Shown: positions 1,839-27,230 of the stretch, one piece after another
Layout of the letters: each line of letters starts with the position of its first letter
Numbering within the stretch: the stretch's first letter is position 1
Assembly: GCA_024640485.1 (NCBI GenBank)
Contig: JAHEEY010000001.1
Span: 1-30,466, forward strand
Source of the DNA: Chloroflexota bacterium
Lineage (GTDB): Bacteria > Chloroflexota > Anaerolineae > Promineifilales > Promineifilaceae
DNA: 30,466 nt
Reading direction: 5' to 3'
Translations under genes and position numbers: made by a program
The notes under the pieces: model-generated
What the model was told of the DNA's origin: nothing
The model's input: the letters and a program-made list of their open reading frames with translations, nothing else
Database searches by the model: none

Positions 1839-1957
1839 ATTTCTCTCCTTTTCAGGTAATTTGCCGCCAGATTTTACCAGCAACTACCGAACAAGACACG
1901 CCATCTACGGTGCGGGTGAGGGTATCAGAAGATAATCCATGGACGGCAGCTCAACTT

Positions 1958-1966
1958 TGTTATAAT
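1958..1966 (+). promoter_or_regulatory. Extended -10 promoter (TGtTATAAT) of the CHAD gene, probably leaderless
   Basis: TGTTATAAT ends 6 nt before the ATG at 1973; no SD sequence. Confidence 0.6.
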
Positions 1967-1972
1967 TCAATC

Positions 1973-2866: not shown

Positions 2867-2921
2867 AATACCATAGGACGGCGCACCTGGAATTTGGTGA
2901 CGCTGATTGCGGGAGGTTAGC

Positions 2922-3245: not shown

Positions 3246-3358
3246 CCAGGCGCCTTAAGGGCGCATATGTTCAGTAATGCGGCTGTCATTGGGTGTCTCG
3301 GGGAGCTGCCACCTAACCGGTTGCGACCGCTGCGAGTCGCAGAGGAAGTGAAATTACG

Positions 3359-3652
3359 ATGAGTGATTCTGAAATTGTGATGTATAAGTCTAGCTACTGC
3401 GGGCACTCCTTGGCAGTGGAAAGCTTTCTGAAGCGGCGCCAAATCCCCGTCAAATTGATCAATATCGACGGTGATGTGGAAGCCCGGCAGACGGTGATGT
3501 CGATCAACAACGGGTTCGCCAGTGTGCCGACATTGATTTTCCCGGACGGCACCCATTTGACTGAGCCATCCTTTCGCCAGCTGCGGGCGAAGCTGAACCT
3601 GGAATCGGTTGGGTTAATTGATCGACTGCGGCGGATTTTTGGATCAAATTGA
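3359..3652 (+). CDS. Glutaredoxin/mycoredoxin/NrdH-like protein (CGHS active site)
   Basis: IVMY-SSYCGHS; GFASVPTLIFPDG contains the cis-Pro VPT motif of the thioredoxin fold. Confidence 0.85.
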   Translation: MSDSEIVMYKSSYCGHSLAVESFLKRRQIPVKLINIDGDVEARQTVMSINNGFASVPTLIFPDGTHLTEPSFRQLRAKLNLESVGLIDRLRRIFGSN

Positions 3653-3730
3653 TCGCGGTCGTAAATTCCCGGTGTGACCGGTCGCCGGGCGGCGCTCTGG
3701 CTAACGCCCCTTTGTTACCTAGGAGCCTTG

Positions 3731-4240
3731 ATGTTACCCATTGTTCTCATCGCATTGGCATTCTTGACGGACCGGCTGTCCAAATGGTGGGCAGCTGATT
3801 TCTTTGCGGAACACGGCGATGTCACCATCAATCAGTTCCTGACCTTGAAGGAGACCTATAATCGAGGGGTCGCCTTTGGGATGTTTCAGGGCATCGGCCC
3901 CCTGGTGGGTTGGCTGACCATTGCCGTTCTGGTGGCCATGCTGGTCTATATTGCCAAGACACCCCGCCAAATGGTGCTGCTGCGCAGTGGTTTGAGTCTG
4001 ATTGTAGGCGGCGCTCTGGGCAATCTGGTGGATCGGATCACGGTTGGCCAGGTATTGGATTTCATCCAAACCCCGCTCCGTTCGGGCATTTTCAACGGGG
4101 CCGATGTGATGATCAATCTGGGGATGGTGCTGGCGCTTGTAGGCAGCTTCCGGCAGCCGCGGGCTGACCTTGAGGAAGAACAAGTCGACTCGCTCGAGCC
4201 GCTCGCCCACACAGATGAGATCGAAGCCGAAACTGAATAG
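3731..4240 (+). CDS. lspA: Lipoprotein signal peptidase II
   Basis: DRLSK, NRGVAFG, GGALGNLVDR, VLDFI and IFNGAD motifs; AGGAG SD before ATG 3731. Confidence 0.93.
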   Translation: MLPIVLIALAFLTDRLSKWWAADFFAEHGDVTINQFLTLKETYNRGVAFGMFQGIGPLVGWLTIAVLVAMLVYIAKTPRQMVLLRSGLSLIVGGALGNLVDRITVGQVLDFIQTPLRSGIFNGADVMINLGMVLALVGSFRQPRADLEEEQVDSLEPLAHTDEIEAETE

Positions 4241-6188: not shown

Positions 6189-7268
6189 ATGCGAGACTTA
6201 ACTGTGGTTTGCCACGAACTCAACAAAGCTTTTTCAACAACACCGGTTGTCCAGAACGTGTCATTTGAACTGCGTTCTGGCGATATTTTGACCCTGCTTG
6301 GCCCCAGCGGCTGCGGCAAGACCACCACCCTGCGCCTTATCGCTGGATTTGAGCAGCTCGACAGCGGGCGTATCGATATCGCCGGTAAGGTGGTCGCCTC
6401 CGATCGCATCCACATGCCCCCAGAGAAACGGCGGGTCGGGATGGTTTTTCAGGATTATGCCATCTTTCCCCACCTGAATGTGGCCGGCAATGTCGCATTT
6501 GGTTTGGAGCGAGGAAAACAGGCGGCTCGGCAGGCGGAAGCGATGCTGGAAATGGTGGGGCTGCCAGGTTTGGGCCAGCAGATGCCCCATGAATTATCCG
6601 GTGGGCAGCAGCAGCGGGTGGCGTTGGCCAGAGCCCTGGCGTTGGATCCAGTCATTTTGCTGTTGGACGAGCCGTTCTCCAATTTGGATACCAGCCTGCG
6701 GGCGCAGGTTCGCAGAGAAGTGCGAGATCTCCTAAAGGAAAACGGGGCTACGGCGGTGTTTGTTACACATGATCAAGAGGAAGCGCTTTTCCTCGGCGAT
6801 CAGATTGCGGTGATGAATGAAGGGGTCCTGGAGCAGGTAGGTACGCCGGTAGATCTATTCCACCGGCCGAAGACCCGGTTTGTGGCTGAATTCATGGGCC
6901 AGACCGATATCATCCCGGGACAGGTGACCGCAGATGGCGTAGAGACGGTGTTGGGTCTGCTGCCGCAGGCGCTGCCTCAACTGCTGGGGAAGCAGGTTGA
7001 GGTTGCCCTTCGGTCTGATGATGTTGGTTTGTTCGAAGATGACTCAGAACTGCCGGCTTGGCTGAATGGGAGCGCCAGAGACGCCACCGTCCTTTCCCGC
7101 CAGTTTATCGGGATCGCTTACATTTATGAAGTGGGGCTGGAAAATGGTTATCTGGTTCACAGCTGGCAGCCCCATACAGTCGACTTTCCCCCCGGGACAA
7201 AGGTGAAAGCCGCATTCCGCCACGATCACCCGCTGACCTGTTTCCTTGATGGGAAAGCAGCGTGGTAG
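6189..7268 (+). CDS. ABC importer ATP-binding protein, FbpC/PotA-type with C-terminal TOBE-like domain
   Basis: GPSGCGKTT, VFQDYAIFPHL, LSGGQQQR, LLLDEP, VTHDQEEA, FVAEFMG. Confidence 0.93.
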   Translation: MRDLTVVCHELNKAFSTTPVVQNVSFELRSGDILTLLGPSGCGKTTTLRLIAGFEQLDSGRIDIAGKVVASDRIHMPPEKRRVGMVFQDYAIFPHLNVAGNVAFGLERGKQAARQAEAMLEMVGLPGLGQQMPHELSGGQQQRVALARALALDPVILLLDEPFSNLDTSLRAQVRREVRDLLKENGATAVFVTHDQEEALFLGDQIAVMNEGVLEQVGTPVDLFHRPKTRFVAEFMGQTDIIPGQVTADGVETVLGLLPQALPQLLGKQVEVALRSDDVGLFEDDSELPAWLNGSARDATVLSRQFIGIAYIYEVGLENGYLVHSWQPHTVDFPPGTKVKAAFRHDHPLTCFLDGKAAW

Positions 7269-7367
7269 CGATCTGGGGCAGATCCTGATCGATTTAATCT
7301 ATCCTTCCTGGTCTGAGGTGATTTTAGGGGAGGGCGCTTTCCGCCGGTGATGGCGGCGCCTAGACGC

Positions 7368-7395
7368 AAAAAAAGCCCTGACACCAGGGCTTTTT
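7368..7395. terminator. Bidirectional intrinsic terminator between the ABC ATPase and the tRNA cluster
   Basis: A-tract-GCCCTG-acac-CAGGGC-TTTTT. Confidence 0.8.
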
Positions 7396-9225: not shown

Positions 9226-9963
9226 ATGTATGCCATAGAGGTGCGAAACCTAACCCGACGATATCAGGATACCCTGGCGGTGGACGATATCTCCTTCAGT
9301 GTGGATCCGGGTGAGATCTTCGGCTTTCTGGGACCCAACGGCGCCGGGAAATCGACTACTATCAAGGTTCTCACCGGGCAGCTTCGCCCTACTTCAGGCA
9401 GCGCCACGGTAATGGGGTGTGATGTGGTCTCGGGGCGCCAGCAGCTGAAGCCTCAGATTGGAGTTGTTTTCGAGCACCAGAACATCTACGAACGAGAGTC
9501 AGCTCAAGGCAATCTGCGGTTTTACGCGCGCCTCTACGGCGTTGATAGGTCCAGGGTCCAAGCAGTGCTCTCTCAAGTGGGCTTGACCGAACGGGCCCGC
9601 GAGAAGAGCAAGAATTACTCCAACGGGATGAAGCAGCGGCTGCTGATCGCCCGGGCGCTGCTCCACCAGCCGGCGCTGCTGTTTCTCGATGAACCCACCC
9701 GGGGGCTAGACCCTAATGTGGCCCGAGAGATCCGGGCGATCATCTCTGATCTGGCGGATCTGGGGGTCACGGTGTTCTTGACCACCCATTACATGGAAGA
9801 GGCGGAGCAGTTGTGTGATCGGGTCGCTATCATTGATCAAGGGCGGGTGGTGGCGCTGGGTACGGTTGAGCAGCTCAAAGCTGAACATGCTCAAGACGGC
9901 TGTGCCAATCTGGAGGATCTATTTGTGCATCTGACCGGCCGTCATCTGGGCCAGGATCATTGA
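9226..9963 (+). CDS. ABC-2 type exporter ATP-binding protein (DrrA-like)
   Basis: GPNGAGKST, YSNGMKQR, LFLDEPTRGLD and TTHYMEEA all intact; GGGAG SD. Confidence 0.93.
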   Translation: MYAIEVRNLTRRYQDTLAVDDISFSVDPGEIFGFLGPNGAGKSTTIKVLTGQLRPTSGSATVMGCDVVSGRQQLKPQIGVVFEHQNIYERESAQGNLRFYARLYGVDRSRVQAVLSQVGLTERAREKSKNYSNGMKQRLLIARALLHQPALLFLDEPTRGLDPNVAREIRAIISDLADLGVTVFLTTHYMEEAEQLCDRVAIIDQGRVVALGTVEQLKAEHAQDGCANLEDLFVHLTGRHLGQDH

Positions 9964-11173: not shown

Positions 11174-11257
11174 CGCGCTGCCTGAGTTAGGAACGATTGT
11201 ACGGCGGCTGCCGTAAGGGTGTGGGCATCAGCCGCTGATATGTAAGGGATTGTTAAA

Positions 11258-12346
11258 ATGAACGGTATTAGAATACTACCTATCCAGAATGCTCGAATCG
11301 TCTGGGCTATTGCCGCAAAAGATCTTGTCGATGGCTTTCAGAACCGGACCATATTGAGCGGCATCGCTACGGTGCTCTTTTTGATGTCGTTGTACCATTG
11401 GTTTCCCAAGCTCTATAAATCAGACCACATCGACGTTGTCGCTTTCGATGCCGGCGGGTCACAGCTGGCAGATGAGATGGCGGATGATCCCGGCTTCAGA
11501 TTGTGGCTGGCGAATTCCGAGCAGGAATTGCGGGCATTGATGGGAGAGGGTGATGCCGGCGAGATCGGCATCGTGATCCCGGCAGACAGTGATCAGCGGA
11601 TGAATGGCGACGAGATTATCGAGCTGCAAGGGCACGTCCTTTGGGACAGCCGGCACAACGCGGATCAGTTGGCACTGGATCTCGAACAAAGGCTGACAGA
11701 GCTGAGCGGCCATCCAGTGAGGCTGAAGCTGGGCAGTCCGGTGTACCTGCAGACCGGGGCCATGGGAACGGTGAGGTTCATCGCTGTCTCACTGGTGATT
11801 ACCACATTTTTCACCGGCGTGCTGATCATTCCCAATCTGATGTTCGAAGAAAAGGAACGAAAGACCCTGGAGACACTCCTGATATCACCGGCAAGCATCA
11901 GGCAGGTGGTATTTGGAAAGGCATTGGCGGGCACTTTGCTTTGCCTGCTGATGACCGCCGTGGCAGTTGCTTTCAGCTGGCGCTATGTAGTTAGCTGGGG
12001 CTTGACCCTGGCGGCCACAGTCAGCGGAATCCTATTCGCCGTTGCCTTGGGCCTGGCGATGGGGATCTTTCTAGAAAATAAACAGCAGGCAAACAGCTGG
12101 ATGCTCATATTGGGCAATATCCTGCTGGTGCCAGTATTCCTGTCGGCCATGGATCCGATTCTGCCCCAGGTGGTTCGGGAGATCCTTCCCTGGACGCCGA
12201 TGGTTTCGCAGGCGCTGCTGTTCCGGTACGGATTTGCCGGCAGCGCGGCGGCTGGGCAGATCTGGCCGGCGCTGTCGATCGTCTTGGTAGGGGCTTTGAT
12301 TTTGCTGGCGCTGGTCGGCTGGAAAGTGAATCGTATCAGCTGGTAG
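11258..12346 (+). CDS. ABC-2 type permease, paralog of 10073-11173
   Basis: AIAAKDLVDG, MFEEKERKTLETLLISPAS...VVFGK. Confidence 0.9.
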   Translation: MNGIRILPIQNARIVWAIAAKDLVDGFQNRTILSGIATVLFLMSLYHWFPKLYKSDHIDVVAFDAGGSQLADEMADDPGFRLWLANSEQELRALMGEGDAGEIGIVIPADSDQRMNGDEIIELQGHVLWDSRHNADQLALDLEQRLTELSGHPVRLKLGSPVYLQTGAMGTVRFIAVSLVITTFFTGVLIIPNLMFEEKERKTLETLLISPASIRQVVFGKALAGTLLCLLMTAVAVAFSWRYVVSWGLTLAATVSGILFAVALGLAMGIFLENKQQANSWMLILGNILLVPVFLSAMDPILPQVVREILPWTPMVSQALLFRYGFAGSAAAGQIWPALSIVLVGALILLALVGWKVNRISW

Positions 12347-14782: not shown

Positions 14783-15703
14783 ATGCATACAGTAGAGGTT
14801 TCACATCTTGCCAAGCGGTTTGGTGATATCGAAGCGGTGGTGGATGTCTCCTTTGCCATCGAACCCGGCGAGATATTTGGCATGCTAGGACCTAACGGCG
14901 CCGGGAAAACCACCACGATTCGGATGATGATGGACATTTTTAAGCCCGATGCCGGCAGCATCAGTGTGTTAGGCGGCCCGCTAGATCTACCGAAAAAGCG
15001 GCGGATCGGCTACCTGCCGGAAGAAAGGGGGCTCTATAAAGATCAGAAGCTCGGCGCTACATTGACTTACCTGGCGATGCTGAAAGGGCTGGATCAGAAG
15101 ACCGCTGAAGGTCGTTTGGGACAATGGCTGGAACGTTTCGACTTGACTGATTACCGTCAGAAGAAGGTAGAAGAGCTGAGCAAGGGGATGCAGCAGAAGG
15201 CCCAGATTATCGCCACTTTGCTGCATGAGCCCGATTTGATCGTCATCGATGAGCCGTTTTCGGGGCTTGATCCCGTCAATACCCGGTTGGTCAAACGCAT
15301 CTTTGAAGAGCAAAGGGATGCTGGCAGGTCCATCATTATGTCCACTCATCAGATGTATCAGGTCGAGGCTCTGTGCAACCGGATTGTGCTGATCAATGAA
15401 GGACGCTCTGTGCTTTACGGCCGGGTGGAAGAGATCAAGCGCAATTTCGCCGGCAATGCGGTGGAGCTGAAAGGGCAGGGGGATTTCACTGAAATCCCTG
15501 GCGTTCTGGAGACACGGCAGCTGAATGGCAGCTGGCATCTGGCCCTGGAAATCGGGGCAGATCCTCAGGATGTGTTTCGTGCTTTGGCCAACCGTGACGG
15601 GGTAAAGATCGATCGTTTCGAGCTGGCGGAGCCATCACTCGATGATATCTTCATCAGCGTCGTGCAAGACGGCAATCACGGATCGGAGGCGGGGCATGTC
15701 TAA
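14783..15703 (+). CDS. ABC exporter ATP-binding protein (NatA/YhaQ-like with C-terminal DUF4162-like domain)
   Basis: GPNGAGKTT, GYLPEERGLY, LSKGMQQK, IVIDEPFSGLDP, MSTH and EPSLDDIF. Confidence 0.93.
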   Translation: MHTVEVSHLAKRFGDIEAVVDVSFAIEPGEIFGMLGPNGAGKTTTIRMMMDIFKPDAGSISVLGGPLDLPKKRRIGYLPEERGLYKDQKLGATLTYLAMLKGLDQKTAEGRLGQWLERFDLTDYRQKKVEELSKGMQQKAQIIATLLHEPDLIVIDEPFSGLDPVNTRLVKRIFEEQRDAGRSIIMSTHQMYQVEALCNRIVLINEGRSVLYGRVEEIKRNFAGNAVELKGQGDFTEIPGVLETRQLNGSWHLALEIGADPQDVFRALANRDGVKIDRFELAEPSLDDIFISVVQDGNHGSEAGHV

Positions 15704-16901
15704 CTTCTGGTTGGTGGCCAAGCATGAATACCGCAATGTGGTCATGCGCCGGGGCTTTGTGATCGGTACCGCCGCCGTCCCTTTGGGGCTGGCGCTGTTG
15801 ATTGGTATGGTCATTCTGGTTGAGAGATCGAGCGAAAACCGGCTGCCGATAGGATATGTGGATCAGGTTGGATTCCTGGACGAGAATGCGCAGCCGGCTG
15901 CCGCCGATGACGAAGAGCGGATTGAAATACAGGCGTTCGCGGATGAAGCCAGCGGTGTCCAAGCGCTGGAGCAGGAGGAGATCCAGGTACTATTTGTCTT
16001 CCCTCCCGATTACCCGGAAACGGTAAAAACAGAGCTGTACTACTTGGAGAAGCCCCCCAGCAATGACGTCTGGCGCGAATTCGACGATTTCGTACGGCTC
16101 AATCTGGTGCGCGGACTGCCAGAGGATGTGGCCTACCGCATGCTGGAAGGGACTAATGTGGTTGTCTATGACACTGCCAGTGACCGGGAGTTTAGTGAAA
16201 GCAGTATTATCAATGTTATCTTGCCCATGGTAGCCAGTTTCTTCTTCTTCTTCGCCACCATGTCGGCTGCCGGCTACCTGTTGGGGGTGATCGCCACCGA
16301 AAAAGAGAACCGGATGATGGAAACGCTGCTGACATCGCTGACACCGGGACAGCTGATCGGGGGCAAGGCGCTTGGATTATTATCGGCGACGCTAACCCAA
16401 CTAACCGTCCATATCGTTACCGCGCTGCTGGCCCTGAAATTTGCTTCACCGGTCATCGAAGCGTTGCAGAAAGCGGTGATCCCCTGGGAATATCTGGGAC
16501 TGTTAGCCCTGTTTTTCTTCCCGGCATACACGCTGGTTGCGGCGGTGATGGTTGCCATCGGCAGCGCCGCTGTTGAGATGCAGCAGGCACAGCAAGTCTC
16601 CGGCATCGTCAACCTCTTTTTCATCGCGCCGTTCTTTTTGGTCGCGCTGCTCTTTTCCAACCCGAATCACCCGATCATTGTCTTTATGACCTTATTCCCG
16701 ACTACCGCCTTCCTGACGGTTTCACTCCGTTGGGGGCTGGGGTCTATCCCGACGTGGCAGTTAGGCTTGAGCTGGGTCATTCTGGTCGGATCGACCGCGT
16801 TTATGATTTGGGCGGCTGCCCGGATCTTTCGGGCTGGTATGCTGCGCTACGGTCAGCCGCTGACCTTTAAGGGCGCCCTGGCATCGCTTCGCAACCAATA
16901 G
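15696..16901 (+). CDS. ABC-2 type permease (NatB/YhaP-like)
   Basis: ATG 15696 overlaps the ATPase 3' end, with GGAGG SD; VIATEKENRMMETLLTS...LIGGK. Confidence 0.9.
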   Translation: MSNFWLVAKHEYRNVVMRRGFVIGTAAVPLGLALLIGMVILVERSSENRLPIGYVDQVGFLDENAQPAAADDEERIEIQAFADEASGVQALEQEEIQVLFVFPPDYPETVKTELYYLEKPPSNDVWREFDDFVRLNLVRGLPEDVAYRMLEGTNVVVYDTASDREFSESSIINVILPMVASFFFFFATMSAAGYLLGVIATEKENRMMETLLTSLTPGQLIGGKALGLLSATLTQLTVHIVTALLALKFASPVIEALQKAVIPWEYLGLLALFFFPAYTLVAAVMVAIGSAAVEMQQAQQVSGIVNLFFIAPFFLVALLFSNPNHPIIVFMTLFPTTAFLTVSLRWGLGSIPTWQLGLSWVILVGSTAFMIWAAARIFRAGMLRYGQPLTFKGALASLRNQ

Positions 16902-16902
16902 G

Positions 16903-18174
16903 ATGGATAGCATGAGAACGATTTGGTTGGTCATAAAACATGAGATTTATACGACGCTTAGAAAGCGCTCTTTCTGGGTGATGACGTTTATCATGCCGGC
17001 GATTCTGCTGGCCTTTAATACCTATGCGGTGATTCAGGACAGCGATATTGGCGGATCTGAGGAGAGTGAAGCAGAGTCAGGCCCTGCCAGTTTGCCTGCT
17101 ATTGGCCTTGTAGATGACGCTGGCTTGCTCAAAGAGATGCCGGAAAGCTTTCCCCAGGACCTGTTTACCCCCTTCGCGGACGAAGCAGCTGCTATGTCGG
17201 CGTTGGAAGCCGGTGATCTGGAACAGATAGTCCACGTCCCTGCTGATTACTTAGCGACTGGCGAGATCCTGGTCTATGATCAAGAGTTCAAGCTCATGAG
17301 CAGCGGTGACGATATGGGTATCGCTTTTGGCAGCAGCAGTGACTGGGTGCTGCCCTATCTGATCAACTACAACTTGAGCGGGGACGAGTCGCTAACCGTA
17401 AAGCTGCGCAATCCTACCCCAGGCAGCATTGCCGAGCATCATGTGGTCCGGCCTACGGCAGATGCGATTGAGGGGGATGAGCGGGTGATGGCGGAGATCA
17501 TCGCCAGGGCGATGCCTTACATCTACTACTTCATCTTGATTATCAGCAGCGGCTATATGCTGACCAGCGTCACGGCCGAGAAGGAAAACCGCACAGTAGA
17601 AGTGCTCCTGCTCAGCCTTAATCCCCGCCAGCTGATGCTGGGCAAGATCATCGGGTTGACCGTTGTCGTCCTGGTGCAGATGTCCGTCTGGTTTGCCGGC
17701 GGCGCGCTGACAGTGGGGCAGAGCTCCAGCTTGTTGAATATCTCGGCCTTTGATTTTCCGCCAGGATTCTTTATTTGGGCGACGCTCTTTATGCTCGGAG
17801 GCTATCTGCTCTATGCCTCGGTGATGGCTGCGGTTGGGGCAATCGCCAATACGGCCCGCGAAGGCAATCAAATCACCTGGATTCTGATTCTGCCGCTGAT
17901 GCCCACATTGATGTTTGCCGACAAATTCTTGACTGAACCTAACGGAACGCTTTCCATGGTGCTCAGTATGTTTCCCTTCAGCGCGCCCAGTGCTATGGTG
18001 ACCCGATTGGCCGTCGCTGATGTGCCCTTGTGGCAGCTGGGAGTCAGCCTCGGAGGATTGGCGCTGACGGCGTATCTGATGATCATGCTGGCCAGCCGTT
18101 TCTTCCGTCCGCACCACCTGCTGTCAAAATCCAAATTCAACTGGCGCCGATTTGCTGCCGCCCTGCGTGGTTAG
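16903..18174 (+). CDS. ABC-2 type permease (NatB/YhaP-like), second subunit
   Basis: SVTAEKENRTVEVLLLS...LMLGKI and PFSAPSAMVTR. Confidence 0.9.
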   Translation: MDSMRTIWLVIKHEIYTTLRKRSFWVMTFIMPAILLAFNTYAVIQDSDIGGSEESEAESGPASLPAIGLVDDAGLLKEMPESFPQDLFTPFADEAAAMSALEAGDLEQIVHVPADYLATGEILVYDQEFKLMSSGDDMGIAFGSSSDWVLPYLINYNLSGDESLTVKLRNPTPGSIAEHHVVRPTADAIEGDERVMAEIIARAMPYIYYFILIISSGYMLTSVTAEKENRTVEVLLLSLNPRQLMLGKIIGLTVVVLVQMSVWFAGGALTVGQSSSLLNISAFDFPPGFFIWATLFMLGGYLLYASVMAAVGAIANTAREGNQITWILILPLMPTLMFADKFLTEPNGTLSMVLSMFPFSAPSAMVTRLAVADVPLWQLGVSLGGLALTAYLMIMLASRFFRPHHLLSKSKFNWRRFAAALRG

Positions 18175-18200: not shown

Positions 18201-18236
18201 AAAAAAGGTCACCTTAATGGTGACCTCTTTTGTTTT
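18201..18236. terminator. Bidirectional intrinsic terminator between the convergent exporter and sulfur operons
   Basis: AAAAA-AGGTCACC-ttaat-GGTGACCT-CTTTTGTTTT. Confidence 0.82.
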
Positions 18237-18265: not shown

Positions 18266-19498
18266 CTAGCCGCAGCCTCCGCTGGTGGGCGCCCGCTTCA
18301 GTTCTAGCTCCACTTTGGGAACAAAGTTCAATTCGAACTGGTGAGGATCTGGTTCCGCGGCCGCGTGCCGGGAGCCCAGGGCGGCGTCAAACGCAAATTG
18401 GAGCTGGTCTTGCCCCGCCGCCGTGACCGCATATTGGGCCTTGAATTCGTCGCCGGCAAATTGATCCAGCCAGCCGTTGATGCCGCCGCCCAGGATATAG
18501 ACATTGGGCACGCTCTCAGCCTGCAGCGTCTTCCACGCCTCGGTTGCGGCAGCTTCATCATTACTCATGACGATGAAGACAGCATTAGCTGGTTCCATGT
18601 GCAGATCCGCGATGACATTGGGGAGTTCTGCCTGGGGGACATTCTTGGCATCCAGGATGTGGAACAGGTTGAAGTTGGCCTCATCCCGGACGTCGATCAT
18701 CATTGGTTTGAGCTTGGTATCATGCAGCAGTTCCAGCAGCTCGCCGGGATCAATCTGTACCGCTCGTTCTGACAGAATTTCGCTCTTTTCAGCGGCGATG
18801 GTTTGCCAGCGGTCTTCGGTGGTCGGTTGGCCAACGGCGATCAGGGCGATGGAAACGATCACCAGCGCGCCAGCGGCGCCATAACGCCATTTAGGCGCTT
18901 TCTTGGGTTCCATGCCGCCAAAAATCCGTTCCAGCTGTTCCGATCCCCAGAACATGAATAGGGCCATGAGAACGACCAGCAGTACGACCGTGCCGGTCTC
19001 CAAACCTAGCCAGTCGGGAAGGGTGAAGCGGCCCATATAGGAGGAGTTCCAGAAGCCTTCGAAATTGCTGACAGTTTCGCCGAACATGAAGACGCCGAAC
19101 AGTACCCCCAGGGTAAAGAAAATGCCGTCGATTTTGGCAGTCGCCACTGCGACCAGCGAAGTGCCGGGGCAGAAACCGCCGATGATGAACCCGGCGCCCA
19201 TGATGAGTCCGCCGACGATTCCTGGCCAGAGGTAGGTCGGGTTAACCCAGACCAGGTTGTAGTCCAGCAGCCCCAAGGAAGAAGCGGTGAAGATGAGGAC
19301 CATGGCCACAATGATGCCGGTGAACATGACTTTCAGGACGGTCATGTCTTTGAAGTAGAATTGAGCCGCCAGTTTGCGGGAATTGCCGAAACCAGCGATT
19401 TCCAGAGCGTAGCCGAAGGCGACGCCGATCAGCGCGAATACGACGTAGGCGCCCCAGTGTCCCAGCAGTTCGCTTAAGGGTAAAGGAAACGTTGTCAT
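18266..19498 (-). CDS. YeeE/YedE (sulfur transporter) half-protein fused to a rhodanese-like domain with C-terminal GGCG
   Basis: GVAFGYALEIAGFG, GGLIMGAGFIIGGFCPGT (YeeE); IDVRDEANFNLFHILDAKNVP...VYILGGGINGW (rhodanese fold); AGGAG SD. Confidence 0.87.
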   Translation of the reverse strand: MTTFPLPLSELLGHWGAYVVFALIGVAFGYALEIAGFGNSRKLAAQFYFKDMTVLKVMFTGIIVAMVLIFTASSLGLLDYNLVWVNPTYLWPGIVGGLIMGAGFIIGGFCPGTSLVAVATAKIDGIFFTLGVLFGVFMFGETVSNFEGFWNSSYMGRFTLPDWLGLETGTVVLLVVLMALFMFWGSEQLERIFGGMEPKKAPKWRYGAAGALVIVSIALIAVGQPTTEDRWQTIAAEKSEILSERAVQIDPGELLELLHDTKLKPMMIDVRDEANFNLFHILDAKNVPQAELPNVIADLHMEPANAVFIVMSNDEAAATEAWKTLQAESVPNVYILGGGINGWLDQFAGDEFKAQYAVTAAGQDQLQFAFDAALGSRHAAAEPDPHQFELNFVPKVELELKRAPTSGGCG

Positions 19499-19571: not shown

Positions 19572-20141
19572 TTAGTTCCAGAATTTCCGGACGAAATAGG
19601 CCAGGGCGTAGGCGCCGCCGAATACGGCGAACATAAATGCCCAACTGCCAACGGACAACACGGAGCCTCCAGACAAAGCTTGACCAGAGGTGCATCCGCG
19701 GGCGAAGCGAGCGCCGTACCCCATCAGGCCGCCGCCGATGAAGGCGGTGAGCCAGCGGGTGCGGGTGCTGATTTGGGGCCCTTTATTCGTTTCCAATTTG
19801 ACGCGGCCGTTTATCAAGCCTGAGATGAAACCGCCGACAATAGTGCCGGCTGTCAGGAAGACAATCCAGCTGTCCAGGGGGTTTCTCTCACCGCCGGCCA
19901 TTTCCAGCAGATAAGGAACGCGATCAACATGCCCCGGAGCTACCAGGTCTTCGAAGAAGACCACAAACCGGTTCAGGCCGCCGGACGCGCCCAGGCCGCT
20001 GCCGGTTATAAAGAAAGCCAGGAACAGGACCACGCCCAGCATAATGCCGGCGGCATACGGGTTGGTGTATGCTTTTTCGACCCGCTTGCTCAAGCGACCC
20101 GATGCGGCAGCTGTGGATTCAGGTGATGTAAAAGCTGTCAT
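19572..20141 (-). CDS. YeeE/YedE family half-protein
   Basis: NPYAAGIMLG, GLGASG and GGGLMGYGARFARGCTSGQALSGG; GGAGG SD. Confidence 0.9.
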   Translation of the reverse strand: MTAFTSPESTAAASGRLSKRVEKAYTNPYAAGIMLGVVLFLAFFITGSGLGASGGLNRFVVFFEDLVAPGHVDRVPYLLEMAGGERNPLDSWIVFLTAGTIVGGFISGLINGRVKLETNKGPQISTRTRWLTAFIGGGLMGYGARFARGCTSGQALSGGSVLSVGSWAFMFAVFGGAYALAYFVRKFWN

Positions 20142-20276: not shown

Positions 20277-23024
20277 CTAGTCACCAGTCGCAGGTGCTTG
20301 AGAGCTCTGGTGTACTTCCAGTTCATCCCAGCCCATAATCATTGATTTGATGCCAGCCATCGGCTTGTGGCCGGTGGTGGTCAAATAAACGTGACCAACG
20401 ATGAAGGTGGCAAACAGCCAGGCGATAATCGTGTGGAACGGCGCCAGGAACGGCAGTCCGCCCAGCTTGGCGGCCACTTCCGGCCACCGCTGCACGCCCC
20501 ACATGAAGATGCCGGTCAGCATCTGCAGCGGCAGCAGCACATTGAGGATGCTGAAGTAGGTGATCTGCTGCAGCGGATTCAGTTTTCTGTCGACGGTCTT
20601 GTCGAAGGGATGTTCATCCCCTTTGAAAATACCGCGGATATAGAAGGTTGCCTGGGTGATCGTCTGGCTGAAGAAACCTCGCGGCTGCGGCAGATATTGG
20701 CGAATTTCGCCGCTGGCCAAATGGTAGAAGACTGCCAGGGCAGCATTGACTACCAGAACGGCTGCCAGGACATTGTGTACCTGCACCATATATTTGAAGC
20801 TGAAGCCGCCGAACAAGTGCGGTTTGTGAATGACCAAGCCGGTGACGATCAGGATCAAGATGGCTGTTGTCTGCAGCCAATGCCACAGCCGCTCGTAGAC
20901 GCCGTACATGTAGACTTCCTGCAGTTCCGGCTCGTGGACTGGGCGTCGACGGGCGGCGAAGAAGCGCAGTCCGCCGTGGGTGATCACCCCGACGATGGTC
21001 GCCAGGAAGATGAAGAGCCCGGCCCGGTCGATCAAGCTGACATTGTTATGCCCCAGGACATATAGGTCATCCGCCGCCGTCTGCGGCTGGTAATACAGTT
21101 TGCCGTCATCAGTGGTGACTAGCTCGCCGCTGAACGCGGTGTTGCTGTCGGTGACGAAGGTCGGCATCACCCCGCCTGGCATCTGGTTGGCCAGCAGCAT
21201 CGGCTGGGCGATCCGCGACTCTTCAGTGTGGCAGGTATCGCAATCTTTGGTGGCCCATTGTCCGTTGGTGACATCGTGGTTGATGCTGTACGGTTGGACC
21301 TCACCAATGATACGGGGATTTTCAAGGCCCAGGGCCTGCAGCCGTGACTGGATCAGCGCTTCCTTCTCAGCCGTGTCGATCCGCAGCTCTTCCGCATCGA
21401 GCTTGTTGTTCCCGTCGGCATCGAACGCGGCCAGGATATCGGACTGATAGCTGTCGCCGTCGAACCAGGCAGCCTGCAGGTCCAGCAATCTTACCGGTTG
21501 GGCCGGTTCGCCATAAACCCAAAACCACGAGCTGACCAGGTTGTAGGGAGCCAGCAGTTGGCCGCCGTCATTTCCCTGGCGGCTCAACAAGACTGGCGTG
21601 TAGCCATTGATCAGAGAGTTGCTGCTGATTTCGCCATCGACGCCCCGGAGGGTCGCGGCGGGAGAGCCGTCCAGCTGTAAAACGGTCCAGTCCACATCTT
21701 GGCGAGTTGGCGCGTAGATGAAGGGGATGTGGCACGATTCACAGCTAAGGCTGCTGACATGCTTATCTTTGTAGGGCAGCCAATCGTGGGTCGCATCGAC
21801 ACTGTGGCACGATTCGCAGCGGCGCAAAGTGTTGTCGAGATCCGGCGCGACGGTCCCTTGGGCGCTCTGCCCCTTGGCAAATTGGTGCAGCGGTCGCTGC
21901 AGATATTCACCGATGTCGATCCGTCGGGGGTCGAAGATGAGGTGGCCGGGTTTGGACTCAGACAAGTCCTGGTAATAGACAGGATTGTTGAGGGAATAAT
22001 GGCAGTCGGTACAGGCTACTACCCGTTCGGTATGTATGTCCCAAGAACGGGAGAGCGATTCTTTGCCCGAAAGGTTCAGCCCAGAGTCTGAGAGGCGTTG
22101 GGGCGAGATGACTTGACCGGTGGTTCCAGTAGTCCACTCAGCCAATGATGCCTGGTCCAGAGTCAGTGGTGTCGATAGATCCATGTGGACAACGCCGTGG
22201 CATTGGCCGCAATTCTCGTTGGTGGGATCCTGAATCGTGACGAATTCGACAGTCAGGTAGCCGTCACTGTCAAACGCATCAGCATTCCAATTCCAATTCC
22301 CGTCTTCCTGGGAGATGATGCCGGTGCCCAACAGGGTGGCGCTGCTGGCCCATTTGAATGAACCAGCCTGCAGCGCTGCGATGCGGGCATCATTGTTGGG
22401 GTTTGACAGATGGCAGAGGAAGCAGTTCATTTCCACAGTGCCGGAGTCCTGCCAGTTCCAGGCTGCGGCTTCGCCGGTTTCCGGATCAATGGTGGAGGTT
22501 TCTACATTGCCAGCATCTGCAGCTAGTGAAGCCAGCGGGAACCCGCTGCGGCTGAATACCGCTGGGCCGCCGCCGACATGTCGGGCGCCGAACAGCTTGA
22601 TCCAGTCAGCGGTAGTCAGATCGACGGTGGCGCTCCCCCGAGGAGTTAGGGTGCGATAGGTCAAGGGATTCCATTTGCCGAAGTAACCAGGGCTGGTGTC
22701 CCAAGGGAGGCCATTTTCAACTGTGCCGTTATCGCTGTAATCGTCCAGGCCCACGGAAGTGTGGAAACTGTGTTCGGCGATGAATTCGGTGTCGTGACAG
22801 CTGCCGCAGGTTTGCATCGTAGAGACCGGCTTGCCGCTCTCTAGCACGCTTTCGCCAGCATCATCGAGGAGCTGAAAAGTAGGATGCAGCGGCGAGATCG
22901 GGCTCGTTTCTTGAGCGGACGCCGGCTGTCTGATGAGTATCAAAAGCGCGACCAGCAATACACCCGACAGGATTGTGTAAAGCAGCAGTCTGGGTTTTGA
23001 ATGATTATGGCTGATTGTGTACAT
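20277..23024 (-). CDS. Multiheme c-type cytochrome (7 CxxCH, OTR-paralogous) fused to C-terminal cytochrome b (PhsC/Ni-hydrogenase cyt b type)
   Basis: Signal peptide ending PASA-QE; CGSCH, CFLCH, CGQCH, CTDCH, CESCH, CESCH, CDTCH; then TM helices with ERLWHW, VQVHN, KLNPLQ and FH...VGHVY. Start placed at ATG 23024. Confidence 0.9.
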   Translation of the reverse strand: MYTISHNHSKPRLLLYTILSGVLLVALLILIRQPASAQETSPISPLHPTFQLLDDAGESVLESGKPVSTMQTCGSCHDTEFIAEHSFHTSVGLDDYSDNGTVENGLPWDTSPGYFGKWNPLTYRTLTPRGSATVDLTTADWIKLFGARHVGGGPAVFSRSGFPLASLAADAGNVETSTIDPETGEAAAWNWQDSGTVEMNCFLCHLSNPNNDARIAALQAGSFKWASSATLLGTGIISQEDGNWNWNADAFDSDGYLTVEFVTIQDPTNENCGQCHGVVHMDLSTPLTLDQASLAEWTTGTTGQVISPQRLSDSGLNLSGKESLSRSWDIHTERVVACTDCHYSLNNPVYYQDLSESKPGHLIFDPRRIDIGEYLQRPLHQFAKGQSAQGTVAPDLDNTLRRCESCHSVDATHDWLPYKDKHVSSLSCESCHIPFIYAPTRQDVDWTVLQLDGSPAATLRGVDGEISSNSLINGYTPVLLSRQGNDGGQLLAPYNLVSSWFWVYGEPAQPVRLLDLQAAWFDGDSYQSDILAAFDADGNNKLDAEELRIDTAEKEALIQSRLQALGLENPRIIGEVQPYSINHDVTNGQWATKDCDTCHTEESRIAQPMLLANQMPGGVMPTFVTDSNTAFSGELVTTDDGKLYYQPQTAADDLYVLGHNNVSLIDRAGLFIFLATIVGVITHGGLRFFAARRRPVHEPELQEVYMYGVYERLWHWLQTTAILILIVTGLVIHKPHLFGGFSFKYMVQVHNVLAAVLVVNAALAVFYHLASGEIRQYLPQPRGFFSQTITQATFYIRGIFKGDEHPFDKTVDRKLNPLQQITYFSILNVLLPLQMLTGIFMWGVQRWPEVAAKLGGLPFLAPFHTIIAWLFATFIVGHVYLTTTGHKPMAGIKSMIMGWDELEVHQSSQAPATGD

Positions 23025-23129
23025 AGTTAGTCCCGTGGCCAGGCATTGACTTGGATGGATTCTAGGCTCTGCGAGCCGGCCCATTCCAGATCAATTGCCT
23101 GCCGCTGATTATTACCTTTTGGACATTCC

Positions 23130-24572
23130 TTATCGTGAACCCAGGAAGGTCTCGTCTCGACCACCCCAACGTAGGGGGTCACCATAGTAGCCCAGCGCTT
23201 CCCAATCAATGCGGCCGGTGTCGCCATGGCATTCCTGGCACTGCAGGGCGTTCTCTTTGGGCTGGACCATGTGGCTTAGGTTCCAGTACATCTCTGTGGG
23301 AGCGAATCCGTATTCGCCGCTGTAAGCCATGCCGGAAATTTCCGATCCCAGGGTTACGGCTTTGTCCCAATCGAAATCAGTCCAATAGCCACCTTCGCCC
23401 ACCGTTTTCGGCTGCAGGATGTAGTTGTACTGACTATCGTAAATCTGTGTGGCCCGGTGAATCTTGAAAGGCCAGATCTTGGCTGTCGGGTCGGTGATGT
23501 CACCCAGGGGCATGTTGAGGACCGTAGAGACGGTCGGATCAATGAGATCGCCTAAAATGTACCGGTCAGCCTTCCCATTGAACCAGGCGTACTCCGGCGT
23601 GAAGCCGCGCTCGTAGACGAAGGCGCCTTTGATTTTAAGATAGACATGGGGATCTTCCGGCAAATCTTGCCCAGCAGCGGACCAATCCCATTCCATCTTG
23701 GTTGGCTGACGAACCGCACCTTCCGGCACATGGCATGTTTGGCAGGCGACCGTATCCACATGGGCGGTGATGCGTTCGTCTTCATGCAGCGATTCGTCGT
23801 GGCACTCGGTGCAAGCCAATACATTGCTGTCATCGGCGCTGACCGAGATACTGTGACCTTTGACCAGGTGATCTTCGGTCTTGTGACAGTCAGTGCAGAC
23901 GAAATCATATCGTCCCATATGAACGTCGATATCCTCGGAAGGGAAATAGAGGCTCTCGTCCAGATCGCCGTGTTTGACGGCATTGCCGCCTCCGCCGTTG
24001 AAGTGGCAGCTGCCGCAGTTCTGGCGGGTGGGTGTGCCTACGCTCTGGGCAGCCGCCAGGAGGTCAACCCCTTCTGCCGGCAGCCCCTTGGCTGCTTTCG
24101 TATAAGTGCCAGTATCGGCGTGGCAGACCAGACAGTCGACGTTCCCTTCATCAGAGAAATCGAAGTTCGCATCTTCCCAGCCATAACCGGCGTGACACCG
24201 GGTACATCCAGGCCAGTTGCCCTGAATGCCGATGCAGAAATTGTTGATCTGATTTTTCTTGCCGATAGTGACCGGTTCATCGCGGCCTGGCAGCATGACC
24301 GGTTCGCTCTCCCAGGTGTAATGAACGGTCTCTGCCACCTGATGGGCGGCGTCTTCATGACATGCCAGACAGGCGGCGGTAACTTCCGGACCAGTTTCGA
24401 AGGTTCCCGACAGGAGGTCGGTATGATCTGTGTGCGGGGCCCGTACGGGGACGCCAGCCCAAGGGTCCTGCTCTGTCTCCGGTTCCCCGGAAGCGAATAG
24501 TGCAATTGGGATAATCACCAGTGACAAGGTGACTATCAAACCAATAACCCAGATGTATTTGAAATCTTTCAT
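23130..24572 (-). CDS. otr: Octaheme tetrathionate reductase family c-type cytochrome
   Basis: Eight CxxCH (CLACH, CTRCH, CLVCH, CGSCH, CTDCH, CTECH, CQTCH, CQECH), the family motif GKKNQINNFCIG, KIWPFKIH and LSHMV; N-terminal hydrophobic signal or anchor. Confidence 0.88.
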   Translation of the reverse strand: MKDFKYIWVIGLIVTLSLVIIPIALFASGEPETEQDPWAGVPVRAPHTDHTDLLSGTFETGPEVTAACLACHEDAAHQVAETVHYTWESEPVMLPGRDEPVTIGKKNQINNFCIGIQGNWPGCTRCHAGYGWEDANFDFSDEGNVDCLVCHADTGTYTKAAKGLPAEGVDLLAAAQSVGTPTRQNCGSCHFNGGGGNAVKHGDLDESLYFPSEDIDVHMGRYDFVCTDCHKTEDHLVKGHSISVSADDSNVLACTECHDESLHEDERITAHVDTVACQTCHVPEGAVRQPTKMEWDWSAAGQDLPEDPHVYLKIKGAFVYERGFTPEYAWFNGKADRYILGDLIDPTVSTVLNMPLGDITDPTAKIWPFKIHRATQIYDSQYNYILQPKTVGEGGYWTDFDWDKAVTLGSEISGMAYSGEYGFAPTEMYWNLSHMVQPKENALQCQECHGDTGRIDWEALGYYGDPLRWGGRDETFLGSR

Positions 24573-24811: not shown

Positions 24812-25144
24812 TCAATCAGCTTCCGCCAGCAGTTCTGATTGCCGCGCAACTGCATCGCGAAGGATTACCCGCATCTCGTTGAGAATCTCTATCATCCGTT
24901 TGTCCGCGAGTCGGTATATGACCGCCGGCCCCTGGCGTTCCGTTATCACCAGCGCGCGCTGTCGCAGCACGCGCAAGTGCCGAGAAATAGTCGGCTGGGG
25001 AGTGTGCAGATGATCTGCCAATGCAGACACATTCAGAGGCTGTTCGTCCAAGGCGTACAGAATCTGAATCCTCTTCGGATCGCCCAATGCCTGGCAAATG
25101 TTGGCGTGCAGCATTGATAGTTCATCAATCGTTGGTTTATGCAT
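24812..25144 (-). CDS. ArsR/SmtB family transcriptional regulator
   Basis: ICQALGDPKRIQIL...VSALA...QPTISRHLRVLR...V...RQG..IYRL winged HTH. Confidence 0.92.
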   Translation of the reverse strand: MHKPTIDELSMLHANICQALGDPKRIQILYALDEQPLNVSALADHLHTPQPTISRHLRVLRQRALVITERQGPAVIYRLADKRMIEILNEMRVILRDAVARQSELLAEAD

Positions 25145-25805: not shown

Positions 25806-27230
25806 TTAATTGCTGTCACCCGATGAAGCTGCCGGAATAAAGGTCTTGTACACCCGTGGGGCGTAGATAACATTATCGGATGTAAGGGTCTGCCCATGTT
25901 TGCCGCCTAAGGCAAAGATGCGCACTTCTACGCTGGCGACGCCCAGATCTGACCAGGTTGAAAACTCTGAGAGCTCCGGGGTGTTGACTACCTGCCAGGT
26001 CTGGGTGTTGGGATCATATACTTCACTGTACAGGATCTCATCCGTTTCATTGGCGCCGCCGATGACATAGAGCTTGTTGAGGACGGTCGCCGCTCCGGCA
26101 CCGGACCGAGGCAGCAGCATGTCGGGGCAGCTGCTCCAGGTTAGTGTGGATGTGTCGAAACGATTGCAGGAGGAGAGATCCGCCTCGCCGTTGCGCCCAC
26201 CGACCACATAAAGCTGTCCCGTGACCGCTTTGCCGGCGGCGAAGGCCGCCGGGTGAGGCATCGACGGCAGCGGCCGCCAGCTGTCTGCGCCAACATCATA
26301 GACAAAATTGGTGTCTAGGAAACCACTCTCATCCCATCCGCCGAATAGATATAAGAAGCTGCCGTCGGAGATGGCCAGCCCACCGGCAATTGGCTGAGGG
26401 ATAGCGGTAACGGCACGCCAGGCATCATTGGCAGGGCTGTACACTTCCACAACATTGGTGGGGGTACCATCCGCGGCCCGCCCACCGGGGACGTAGATCT
26501 CGCCAAATAGGACGGCTGCGGAAGCGTCGGCAACGACGGTGGGTTTGGAGGCGGCCTGGCGCCAGCTCTGGGTGGTGGTATCGAACACGTTAACGGTGCC
26601 AACGACGCCATCTGCTGTTTCACCGCCAATCTGATAAACATTGACGCCTACAGCGGCTGCCGCCATATGGGCAACGGCCAAGGGCAAAGGGCGGCTTTGG
26701 AACCAATCGCTGTCCCCAAGGCGCGTTTCTTGGAACAGCTCCGGGGTCGCTTCCGGCCCCGGCTTGAGGGCGCGCTGGCCGAATCCGAACCACAGAGCGG
26801 CGACCACTGCGATCGTCAGCACGGCTGTCGCGGCTGCTGTTCGCCAACTGAAGGGACGGGCTGCCGGCGGCACCGATATGAGATCCGAGGTGGTTTCGGC
26901 TGGGGACGTCGGCTCATCTTCCAACTGTTCTTCAGGCTCTTCGGACGCGGGGAGCGGCAGTTCAGGGCTGTCCGGCACTACAGCAGCTGTAGAAGGGGAA
27001 GCAGCTGCATCTTCGCTGGCGATGATGATCAGGCGCTGCTGGAGAGCCGTTGTCGTCGCTTCGGTTCGCGAAGAAGCCCCCAGCTTGCTAAAGATATTGC
27101 GCAGGTGGACCTTTACGGTGTTCTGGCTGATCAGCAGGCTGGCGGCGATTTCTTTGTTGGAAGCGCCTTCAGCAACACATTGCAGCACTTCCAATTCACG
27201 TTGACTGAGAGAGTCACCAAGTTCAGGCAT
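25806..27230 (-). CDS. LuxR-type HTH - transmembrane - Kelch-repeat beta-propeller protein
   Basis: LSQRELEVL...GASNKEIA..L.IS.NTVKVHLRNIFSKLG..SRTEA; hydrophobic segment AAATAVLTIAVVAALWFGF; six GG...W Kelch repeats. Confidence 0.9.
   Translation of the reverse strand: MPELGDSLSQRELEVLQCVAEGASNKEIAASLLISQNTVKVHLRNIFSKLGASSRTEATTTALQQRLIIIASEDAAASPSTAAVVPDSPELPLPASEEPEEQLEDEPTSPAETTSDLISVPPAARPFSWRTAAATAVLTIAVVAALWFGFGQRALKPGPEATPELFQETRLGDSDWFQSRPLPLAVAHMAAAAVGVNVYQIGGETADGVVGTVNVFDTTTQSWRQAASKPTVVADASAAVLFGEIYVPGGRAADGTPTNVVEVYSPANDAWRAVTAIPQPIAGGLAISDGSFLYLFGGWDESGFLDTNFVYDVGADSWRPLPSMPHPAAFAAGKAVTGQLYVVGGRNGEADLSSCNRFDTSTLTWSSCPDMLLPRSGAGAATVLNKLYVIGGANETDEILYSEVYDPNTQTWQVVNTPELSEFSTWSDLGVASVEVRIFALGGKHGQTLTSDNVIYAPRVYKTFIPAASSGDSN

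Follow-up and report, generated by a model that had tools for sequence, protein, structure and literature searches.

A conserved cysteine-tipped tail on a rhodanese domain fused to half of a YeeE-type channel, a candidate sulfur-carrier arm encoded beside Otr-family cytochromes

The window analysed here is a 30,466-nucleotide stretch of contig JAHEEY010000001.1 from a Chloroflexota bacterium of the family Promineifilaceae (assembly GCA_024640485.1), and it encodes a 410-amino-acid (aa) protein, P0001, in which the N-terminal half of a YeeE-type membrane channel is joined to a rhodanese domain that has no Cys in its active-site loop and ends in a Gly-rich tail, GGCG. Conservation of the tail Cys among relatives far exceeds chance, and the observation is real and strongly non-random. 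We propose, with about even confidence, that the domain and its tail form an outward-facing covalent sulfur-carrier or redox arm that serves the channel and a neighbouring octahaem cytochrome c of the Otr family. Such an arm would follow the known carrier-arm principle in a variant form for which the literature searched apparently holds no description. The fusion gene and the parts of its product are as follows.

18266-19498, reverse strand: gene for P0001, a 410-aa fusion of a YeeE N-half, an extra transmembrane (TM) helix, a Cys-less rhodanese domain and a GGCG tail (open reading frame, translation, Pfam PF04143 and PF00581, AlphaFold2 (AF2) model)
18917-19477, reverse strand: membrane core, residues 8-194, corresponding to YeeE helices H1-H7 and including the FCPG loop, with the Cys110 codon at 19169-19171 (Pfam, VIA-align)
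18833-18889, reverse strand: extra TM helix, residues 204-222, after a Lys/Arg (K/R)-rich loop at 195-203, predicted to return the chain to the outer face (AF2, family hydropathy)
18464-18748, reverse strand: rhodanese-homology domain, residues 251-345, with the loop FIVMSNDE at 18554-18577 and Ser312 replacing the catalytic Cys (Pfam, PDB alignments, structural matches)
18299-18463, reverse strand: ordered C-terminal extension, residues 346-400, packing on the rhodanese domain, its last element a conserved PKV-x-L-x-L strand (AF2 predicted local distance difference test (pLDDT) 86-97, alignment consensus)
18269-18298, reverse strand: flexible tail, residues 401-410, ...LKRAPTSGGCG, with the Cys409 codon at 18272-18274 and the stop at 18266-18268 (pLDDT, conservation, TGA forms in relatives)

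Architecture of the fusion protein

An earlier note, made from the letters of the window alone, had described the rhodanese loop as lacking Cys, the terminal GGCG as holding the only Cys of the soluble part, and the whole as fused to half of a YeeE protein, and all three descriptions were borne out. Pfam placed the N-half of Sulf_transp (PF04143, profile positions 10-165 of 310, E = 2.2e-14) at residues 43-200 and Rhodanese (PF00581, E = 7.3e-13) at residues 251-345, and only two cysteines are present in the whole protein, Cys110 in the FCPG motif and Cys409 in the tail. When aligned to solved rhodaneses, P0001 has Ser312, within FIVMSNDE (residues 308-315), at the position of the catalytic Cys of Sud (1qxn), and its active-site loop SNDEAAA holds no Cys at all. 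The tail codons, read on the reverse strand from 18266-18280, are GGA GGC TGC GGC TAG. A weak NCBIfam match of the fusion to the rhodanese-related (seleno)protein model NF041203 scored 18 bits against a cut-off of 115.

The AF2 model, built on the family alignment (pLDDT 92.6; predicted template modelling score 0.88), shows the H1-H7 pattern, the helix at 204-222 and the soluble domain, and its sole low-confidence part is the tail, with a mean pLDDT of 58 over the last 10 residues. VIA-align matched the membrane part of P0001 to YeeE structures 6lep_A and 8j4c_B (chain residues 1-221; Z 8.9-9.1) and its rhodanese fold to 3gk5, 1yt8, GlpE and others (Z 12.2). A Foldseek search of the model against the PDB matched the rhodanese domain and left the YeeE part unmatched, and YeeE was not among the best 60 matches of a profile search on PDB sequences; VIA-align alone gave the YeeE match. 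By profile and structure, P0001 is a member of both the rhodanese-fold and the YeeE families, and it lacks the catalytic Cys that marks rhodaneses of the sulfurtransferase class.

Conservation of the tail cysteine

Relatives were collected in two ways. A word-index search matched more than 5000 clusters at 90% identity, of which the best 120 were 68-95% identical to P0001 and came mostly from Chloroflexota metagenome-assembled genomes (MAGs), and an exhaustive search of 50%-identity cluster representatives returned 346 proteins at E <= 1e-30, from which the 92 full-length ones were scored. The earlier note had proposed such an alignment as a check on the terminal GGC, which proved to be conserved: the GGCG end is found in 118 of the 120 best relatives, a Cys lies within the last four residues of 86 of the 92 representatives (tails GGCG, GGC, GGCS, GCGG or EGC), and in a 91-sequence alignment (29-76% identity to P0001, mean column identity 32%) Cys110 and Cys409 are among just 11 invariant columns (91/91), with Gly408 conserved in at least 90%. 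The catalytic position of the rhodanese loop is occupied by Ser in 47 of the 92 representatives, Gly in 13, Ala in 10, Asp in 9 and Thr in 4; Cys appears inside the loop window in 4/92 and at the catalytic position itself in 2/92. Two representatives, P0122 and P0248, have a loop Cys at the classical position (VMMCNNESE and VLYCNNETM, respectively) as well as a tail Cys, and these may be intermediates between loop-Cys and tail-Cys rhodaneses.

A farmland metagenome contig (L087, positions 1290-1303) carries TGG (Trp) at the tail Cys codon and reads GGGWG-stop, which may reflect a sequencing error or an inactivating mutation. For P0222, with the tail GGGWG, a TGA read as Trp was considered and rejected on the grounds that the DNA shows a real TGG, and this protein was left out of the count of selenocysteine (Sec) forms. 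We also considered and rejected a sorting signal of the GlyGly-CTERM or MYXO-CTERM type, because the chain stops one residue after the Cys, with no TM segment behind the motif.

The tail is not confined to the channel fusion. In the gene cluster of a biogas-reactor relative (L084, 36% identical), two stand-alone exported rhodaneses also end in GGC (6264-7373 and 9247-9858), one of them of a tandem-domain lipoprotein type with loop cysteines and the other held by a signal anchor, its loop carrying Ser. The Cys-tipped tail therefore forms a separate module that does not depend on fusion to the channel.

Selenocysteine forms of the tail

Some relatives very probably carry Sec at the tail position (GGUG). 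Tails were listed for 82 fetched loci, and metagenome contigs were scanned by pattern for a TGA tail. Among these fetched loci, TGA was found in one, L026 (...SGGG-TGA-GGC-TAA); a second case is L088, the locus of the truncated representative P0163 (...VVGGG-TGA-GGA-TAG). A strict metagenome pattern demanding the full YTPK...GGG context before the TGA tail gave zero matches, and a looser one gave three loci, L095 (GGG-TGA-GGG-TAA) and the identical L094 and L096 (GGG-TGA-GGC-TAG), all true family members with the Otr cassette described below or parts of it. The four distinct TGA proteins are 55-78% identical to one another, and the nearest relatives of L026 are Cys forms. Because the Gly codon after TGA differs synonymously among the four sequences (GGC/GGA/GGG/GGC), the TGA appears to have been kept over wide divergence with the next codon under selection, unlike a fresh nonsense mutation.

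Each TGA locus has a G+C-rich hairpin after the UGA, with a 6-7 bp stem and a 3-nt loop, starting 15-17 nt from the U; the loop begins with G in L026, L088 and L094/L096 and with U in L095. This hairpin, which resembles a selenocysteine insertion sequence (SECIS), is distinct from the terminator further downstream. A position-specific test, in which hairpins were scored by stem position and not by a curated bacterial SECIS model, was positive in 5/5 TGA loci and in 10/80 Cys loci. By minimum free energy of the next 39 nt, TGA and Cys loci could not be told apart, because the Cys loci carry intrinsic terminators there. The genome of L026, the sole TGA-form genome tested, encodes SelB (326.6 bits, cut-off 242) and SelA (573.9 bits, cut-off 268); the window's own gene has TGC at the tail codon, and its genome nonetheless encodes SelB. 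In L026 (positions 11251-11285), the 3' arm of the SECIS-like hairpin reads GGCTGCGGCTAA, which is the usual family tail coding sequence (Gly-Cys-Gly-stop), and the +1 frame through the hairpin region is open and ends ...AAGCG-stop. The hairpin of L026 may be derived from a duplicated or displaced copy of an old Cys tail.

We considered whether the TGA forms are pseudogenes and rejected this, given the retention of TGA across the divergence above, the synonymous Gly changes, the enrichment of hairpins, and the presence of SelA and SelB. The same evidence bears on a broader doubt, namely that the terminal Cys is no chemical centre but a metal or haem ligand, a post-translational attachment site or a structural residue, with the TGA codons being truncating mutations or assembly errors. 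One TGC-to-TGA change alone would yield TGA-GGN-stop, the Trp codon of the farmland contig sits at this very position, and two representatives (P0185 and P0247) are missing the tail Cys altogether. However, synonymous change of the next codon at 55-78% identity, hairpins enriched at a fixed distance and the Sec machinery all speak against truncation or error, and invariance over 29-76% identity would be unexpected for a structural end residue of a disordered tail, so that we give this explanation very little credence.

Cys/Sec alternation is a classical mark of a nucleophilic or redox-active residue, and since the two alternate here, the tail residue is probably chemically active. A reactive tail Cys is likewise suggested by its invariance, by its place on a low-confidence flexible tail, and by the TGA codon with a SECIS-like hairpin in some relatives. 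The searched entries of a prokaryotic selenoprotein catalogue include several rhodanese forms with Sec in the loop or in a terminal CxU (NF041203) and a YeeE form with Sec in the channel loop (PMC13188914). A GGUG tail on a YeeE-rhodanese fusion is absent from the catalogue entries that match rhodanese, YeeE, multiheme and C-terminal terms, and the GGUG forms would add a selenoprotein type not found in those searched parts (PMC13188914).

Membrane topology

There are strong grounds for placing the rhodanese domain and tail outside the cytoplasm, facing the periplasm or the cell surface, where the operon's c-type cytochromes also lie; this assignment follows from YeeE homology and crystal topology, from one added TM helix and from the alternation of K+R. 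In the YeeE crystal structure the chain starts outside and finishes inside, and the halves H1-H6 and H8-H13 have opposite orientations because of H7, which ends inside (PMC7449682). Along successive loops of the family, the net charge (K+R minus D+E) runs -0.25, +0.82, -1.02, +0.95, -0.55 and +1.73, a positive-inside pattern that fits an N-terminus outside and the loop before the extra helix inside. The extra hydrophobic helix is found in every tail sub-group, with a family mean Kyte-Doolittle hydropathy of 1.93 and a mean of 2.85 K+R in the preceding loop. The GGC-tailed rhodaneses of L084, with a lipoprotein-type signal or a signal anchor, are consistent with an outward tail.

The earlier note had left the facing side undetermined and had named topology prediction as a check, and the prediction gives an outward-facing domain. 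This splits the note's central proposal, that a built-in carrier replaces YeeD or SoxYZ. The tail Cys, being invariant, flexible and in some relatives encoded by TGA, does fit a built-in carrier or redox arm, but YeeD/TsuB is cytoplasmic, and because the tail is predicted to lie outside the cytoplasm, the arm cannot stand in for it. A cytoplasmic form of that proposal would have the domain act in place of TusA-like YeeD/TsuB, taking thiosulfate sulfur at the inner end of the channel. It would account for a cassette with no TusA-family gene (the sole TusA gene of the window's own genome lies on another contig, C575), and YeeD is essential for YeeE-mediated uptake in other bacteria (PMC11073785). 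In addition to the topology, however, both the exported GGC-tailed rhodaneses of L084 and the conserved partnership with c-type cytochromes, which work outside the cytoplasm, argue against it, and we consider a cytoplasmic carrier highly improbable.

The split channel and its cytochrome cassette

The genes upstream of the fusion gene that bear on its role are the following.

19572-20141, reverse strand: partner gene for P0002, a 189-aa YeeE C-half with the RGCTSG loop, Cys150 codon at 19692-19694 (Pfam, NCBIfam, conservation)
20277-23084, reverse strand: gene for a 935-aa protein that joins a multihaem cytochrome c (7 CxxCH) to a dihaem cytochrome b membrane domain, a CbcL-like candidate quinol/quinone module (Ni_hydr_CYTB)
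23130-24572, reverse strand: gene for a 480-aa octahaem cytochrome c of the Otr family, 8 CxxCH (phmmer against 1SP3, PF11783)
24812-25144, reverse strand: gene for a 110-aa ArsR/SmtB-type helix-turn-helix (HTH) regulator with a single Cys, heading the operon (open reading frame; homologue annotated HTH_20/HTH_5 at the equivalent position in loci L001 and L002)

P0002 covers positions 164-309 of the 310 in the PF04143 profile (E = 6.3e-23) and also matches NCBIfam TsuA/YedE models; its RGCTSG motif is kept in 87/88 loci, and its gene lies directly upstream of the fusion gene in every locus compared. The cysteines that the earlier note had picked out in FCPG and GCTSG are Cys110 of P0001 and Cys150 of the upstream P0002. 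On this sequence evidence, P0001 and P0002 make up a split YeeE/TsuA-type sulfur channel. Their Cys110 and Cys150 are taken as equivalents of YeeE Cys91 and Cys293 by way of the PmpB/PmpA mapping (PMC11582611), not by direct alignment. From its basic N-terminus and basic second loop, P0002 is predicted to have both ends inside, matching the inverted halves of full-length YeeE. The pair is not a YeeE protein in the strict sense of a single nine-TM chain with the N-terminus out and the C-terminus in, as it comes from two genes and has an extra helix and an outer soluble domain. Split YeeE (PmpAB) proteins have been proposed to be heterodimers, and the related SoxT has been proposed to import SoxY-bound sulfur (PMC11582611).

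The 480-aa cytochrome is a homologue of Shewanella Otr (phmmer against 1SP3, E = 7.5e-153) with all eight CxxCH motifs present and a Pfam PF11783 match, and it keeps GKKNxINNFC, that is, Lys56 and Cys64 by residue count on the aligned 1SP3 chain. In the 935-aa protein, Pfam found Ni_hydr_CYTB at residues 727-917 (E = 5.5e-22) along with weak multihaem family matches. We take its haem c/cytochrome b architecture to resemble that of Geobacter CbcL. Separately, the reader of the bare letters had suggested that this protein is an Otr paralogue minus the catalytic haem.

L001 and L002 share with the window the gene order Otr, haem c/b fusion, YeeE C-half, YeeE N-half-rhodanese, and the four-gene cassette is present in 56 of the 58 fetched loci with at least 5.2 kb of upstream DNA. 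Its carriers include MAGs labelled Lysobacterales, Gemmatimonadota, Acidobacteriota and Myxococcota, and in the 36%-identical relative L084 the YeeE pair and rhodaneses are clustered with an Otr-like gene and a gene for a separate cytochrome b. The channel pair is also present in MAGs labelled Caldilinea aerophila (L025 and L046). The arm family occurs in at least 599 species genomes and is often met in Chloroflexota of the Anaerolineae type from sludge, sediment and groundwater. A search for RNA evidence turned up only four runs, all of them DNA from sediment metagenomes. Because the fusion gene nearly always adjoins the Otr gene, the tail is probably a reactive handle linking Otr to the channel. 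The window's own genome (90.8% complete) has one tail-Cys rhodanese and one YeeE N-half, and gave no match to SoxY; none of the annotated genes in the cassette or alongside it encodes SoxZ, SoxB or a SoxXA-family protein, SoxZ not having been searched genome-wide.

The regulator at the head of the operon was matched by tblastn in many, not all, related loci. Its single Cys lies in HANICQAL, and in this it differs from the two-Cys persulfide sensors BigR and SoxR.

An ArsR-family regulator beside a YeeE-type channel raises the question of metalloids, and the cassette could be a selenium or tellurium oxyanion module in which a selenium species passes through a YedE-like channel and is bound by the arm in a selenotrisulfide-type adduct, while the cytochromes act as reductases of selenite or tellurite and the repressor senses the metalloid. 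Proteins of the YedE family have been linked to selenium transport (PMC11582611), weak NCBIfam matches to YedE selenium-transporter models were obtained here, and SelB is encoded both in the window's own genome and in that of L026. A rhodanese lipoprotein, ExtH, also belongs to a Geobacter cytochrome cluster that is reported to be tied to selenite. However, the best NCBIfam and Pfam matches of the channel are to thiosulfate/sulfur transport models, with the YedE equivalog at 17 bits against a cut-off of 200, the extra catalytic rhodaneses in the distant L084 cluster fit sulfur transfer, and the cassette has none of the selenium-utilisation genes sought (selD and yedF). Overall, a selenium or tellurium role seems improbable to us.

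Proposed mechanism of the arm

We hypothesize that P0001 supplies H1-H7 of the channel and crosses the membrane once more, which would set the rhodanese fold and its GGCG tail on the outer face. The tail thiol, or selenol in some relatives, would then be the only reactive group of the soluble part, carried on a tethered swinging arm, and could form a covalent adduct with inorganic sulfur such as a persulfide or polysulfide, an S-thiosulfonate or an S-sulfonate. The arm would show this adduct to the catalytic haem pocket of Otr, which would draw electrons from the quinone pool or return them to it by way of the haem c/b fusion, and would pass the product to, or take its substrate from, the outer channel mouth at Cys150 of the C-half, much as the SoxY arm serves SoxXA and SoxB. 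Chemically, a thiolate or selenolate could plausibly attack the S-S bond of tetrathionate or polysulfide to give an S-thiosulfonate or persulfide, which Otr might reduce with quinol-derived electrons; the reverse, oxidative direction would be equally possible. All of this is inferred: that sulfur is carried covalently, that the arm touches Otr and the channel, which way electrons flow and what the substrate is.

A bolder version, which we put forward as speculation with a rather low chance of being right, holds that the substrate of this Otr clade is not a free ion but the sulfur adduct at the Cys or Sec end of the arm tethered to the channel. On this view the four proteins would make up a membrane supercomplex, in which electrons of the quinone pool are coupled to the chemistry of protein-bound sulfur and the product goes straight through the YeeE channel.

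Several points weigh against a carrier arm working with Otr. Otr retains its own active-site Cys64 and has no obvious need of an external thiol. In vitro, Shewanella Otr prefers nitrite and hydroxylamine and has weak tetrathionate activity, and deletion of otr gives no tetrathionate phenotype, sulfite reduction having been suggested instead (PMC12949373). Both the linker leading to the tail, which is basic, and the outer vestibule of YeeE (PMC7449682) are positively charged, so that docking of the unloaded tail would be disfavoured. The channel pair occurs without Otr in two loci, L073 and L048, and in L083 (positions 833-3792) a relative with the tail ...REGC is followed by a gene for a 577-aa aminotransferase class V (cysteine desulfurase-like) protein instead of forming part of an Otr cassette, on a contig of 4.2 kb that is short of upstream context. 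Finally, the outward topology is itself derived from homology and sequence.

The tail might also act as a redox relay, making transient mixed disulfides (or selenenylsulfides) with Cys150 of the channel or Cys64 of Otr and so reducing or resolving adducts at these residues with cytochrome electrons, in the manner of the GCUG tail of thioredoxin reductase or the penultimate Cys of DsrC. Alternation of Cys and Sec is typical of redox-active residues, the tail Cys is penultimate on a flexible tail, and both candidate partner cysteines are conserved (RGCTSG in 87/88 loci, NNFC in Otr). A single tail Cys, however, leaves the arm without a resolving partner of its own, and ordinary YeeE proteins function without such an arm (PMC7449682, PMC11073785). 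Although the relay is not clearly separable from the carrier on the present data, we regard it as the unlikelier of the two, at a level of confidence well short of even.

Comparison with known systems

The fusion, its tail and its link to Otr were not found described in full-text literature searches. In function, the proposed arm would be closest to SoxY of SoxYZ (PF13501), which is also extracytoplasmic, has as its sole reactive group a Cys in a Gly-rich C-terminal tail and works with c-type cytochromes (SoxXA) (PMC6067878), and whose sulfur the YeeE-like SoxT has been proposed to take (PMC11582611). The earlier note had called the arm SoxY-like, which holds as an analogy of function and not of fold. 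P0001 has neither a SoxY fold nor a SoxY Pfam match (E <= 0.1), its arm is borne by a rhodanese fold, is anchored in the membrane through the fusion to the channel and very probably has Sec in some relatives, and its tail motifs (GGCG, or GGC, GGCS and EGC in relatives), on a segment that is flexible in the model (pLDDT 58), are similar to the GGCGG of SoxY without being the same.

The membrane part is homologous to YeeE/TsuA (6LEO/6LEP, 8J4C), with the equivalent of Cys91 in the N-half and that of Cys293 in the C-half, and as in PmpB/PmpA the two halves are encoded by adjacent genes. Unlike YeeE-YeeD and PmpAB, P0001 adds a TM helix and a putatively outward rhodanese domain, the cassette is without a TusA-like partner, the gene order is C-half then N-half, and the companions are respiratory cytochromes and not assimilation genes. 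The TusA/YeeD/TsuB proteins (PF01206) are cytoplasmic and have a CPxP motif, whereas P0001 has no TusA match and probably faces outward. The neighbouring 480-aa protein is a clear homologue of Shewanella oneidensis Otr (1SP3) by its eight CxxCH and its Lys56/Cys64 motif; in contrast to the soluble Shewanella protein, whose physiological role is not established (PMC12949373), Otr is here nearly always encoded with a haem c/b quinone module and an armed channel.

Among single rhodanese domains that are periplasmic or membrane-anchored, Sud of Wolinella (1QXN) and PspE and YgaP of E. coli were structural matches to the P0001 domain. These proteins carry sulfur on a loop Cys, and Sud delivers polysulfide sulfur to a respiratory reductase, whereas the arm family has lost the loop Cys and its reactive residue would have moved to the C-terminal tail. 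A reactive C-terminal residue on a flexible arm that visits another active site is known from thioredoxin reductase (Gly-Cys-Sec-Gly tail) and DsrC (penultimate Cys). A terminal Cys/Sec motif (CxU) on a rhodanese-related protein is also given for NF041203 in the searched catalogue entries (PMC13188914). Compared with all three, the arm has a single chalcogen and not a pair, and would be extracytoplasmic and fused to a channel.

Implications

The crystal structure of Otr has been available since 2004. A 2026 study again found no role for the protein in tetrathionate respiration (PMC12949373), and the near-obligatory partnership of Otr with a Cys- or Sec-armed sulfur channel provides a concrete, testable hypothesis for its substrate. 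If the bolder version is right, the cassette would represent a non-Sox, carrier-based pathway of sulfur respiration or oxidation that is widespread in Chloroflexota and present in several other phyla. The family may matter for sulfur cycling in sludge, sediment and groundwater. The arm would also be a new build of covalent sulfur carrier, in which a rhodanese fold has traded its loop Cys for a terminal one and has been fused to the transporter that it serves, and by analogy it supports the proposal that YeeE-like SoxT channels receive their sulfur from a carrier.

Other features of the window

One further feature lies just beyond the stop codon of the fusion gene.

18206-18226, no strand assigned: hairpin with flanking T-runs on either strand, probably a terminator that acts in both directions, for the operon and for a convergent ABC-2 permease gene (terminator scan)

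Genes for an ATP-binding cassette (ABC) ATPase and two ABC-2 permeases (14783-18174, forward strand) converge on the operon and share this hairpin. The downstream neighbours of the arm gene differ in L001 and L002, so that adjacency to the ABC genes is not conserved. Just upstream of the operon region, a 474-aa protein with a LuxR-type HTH fused to Kelch repeats is encoded at 25806-27230 on the reverse strand.

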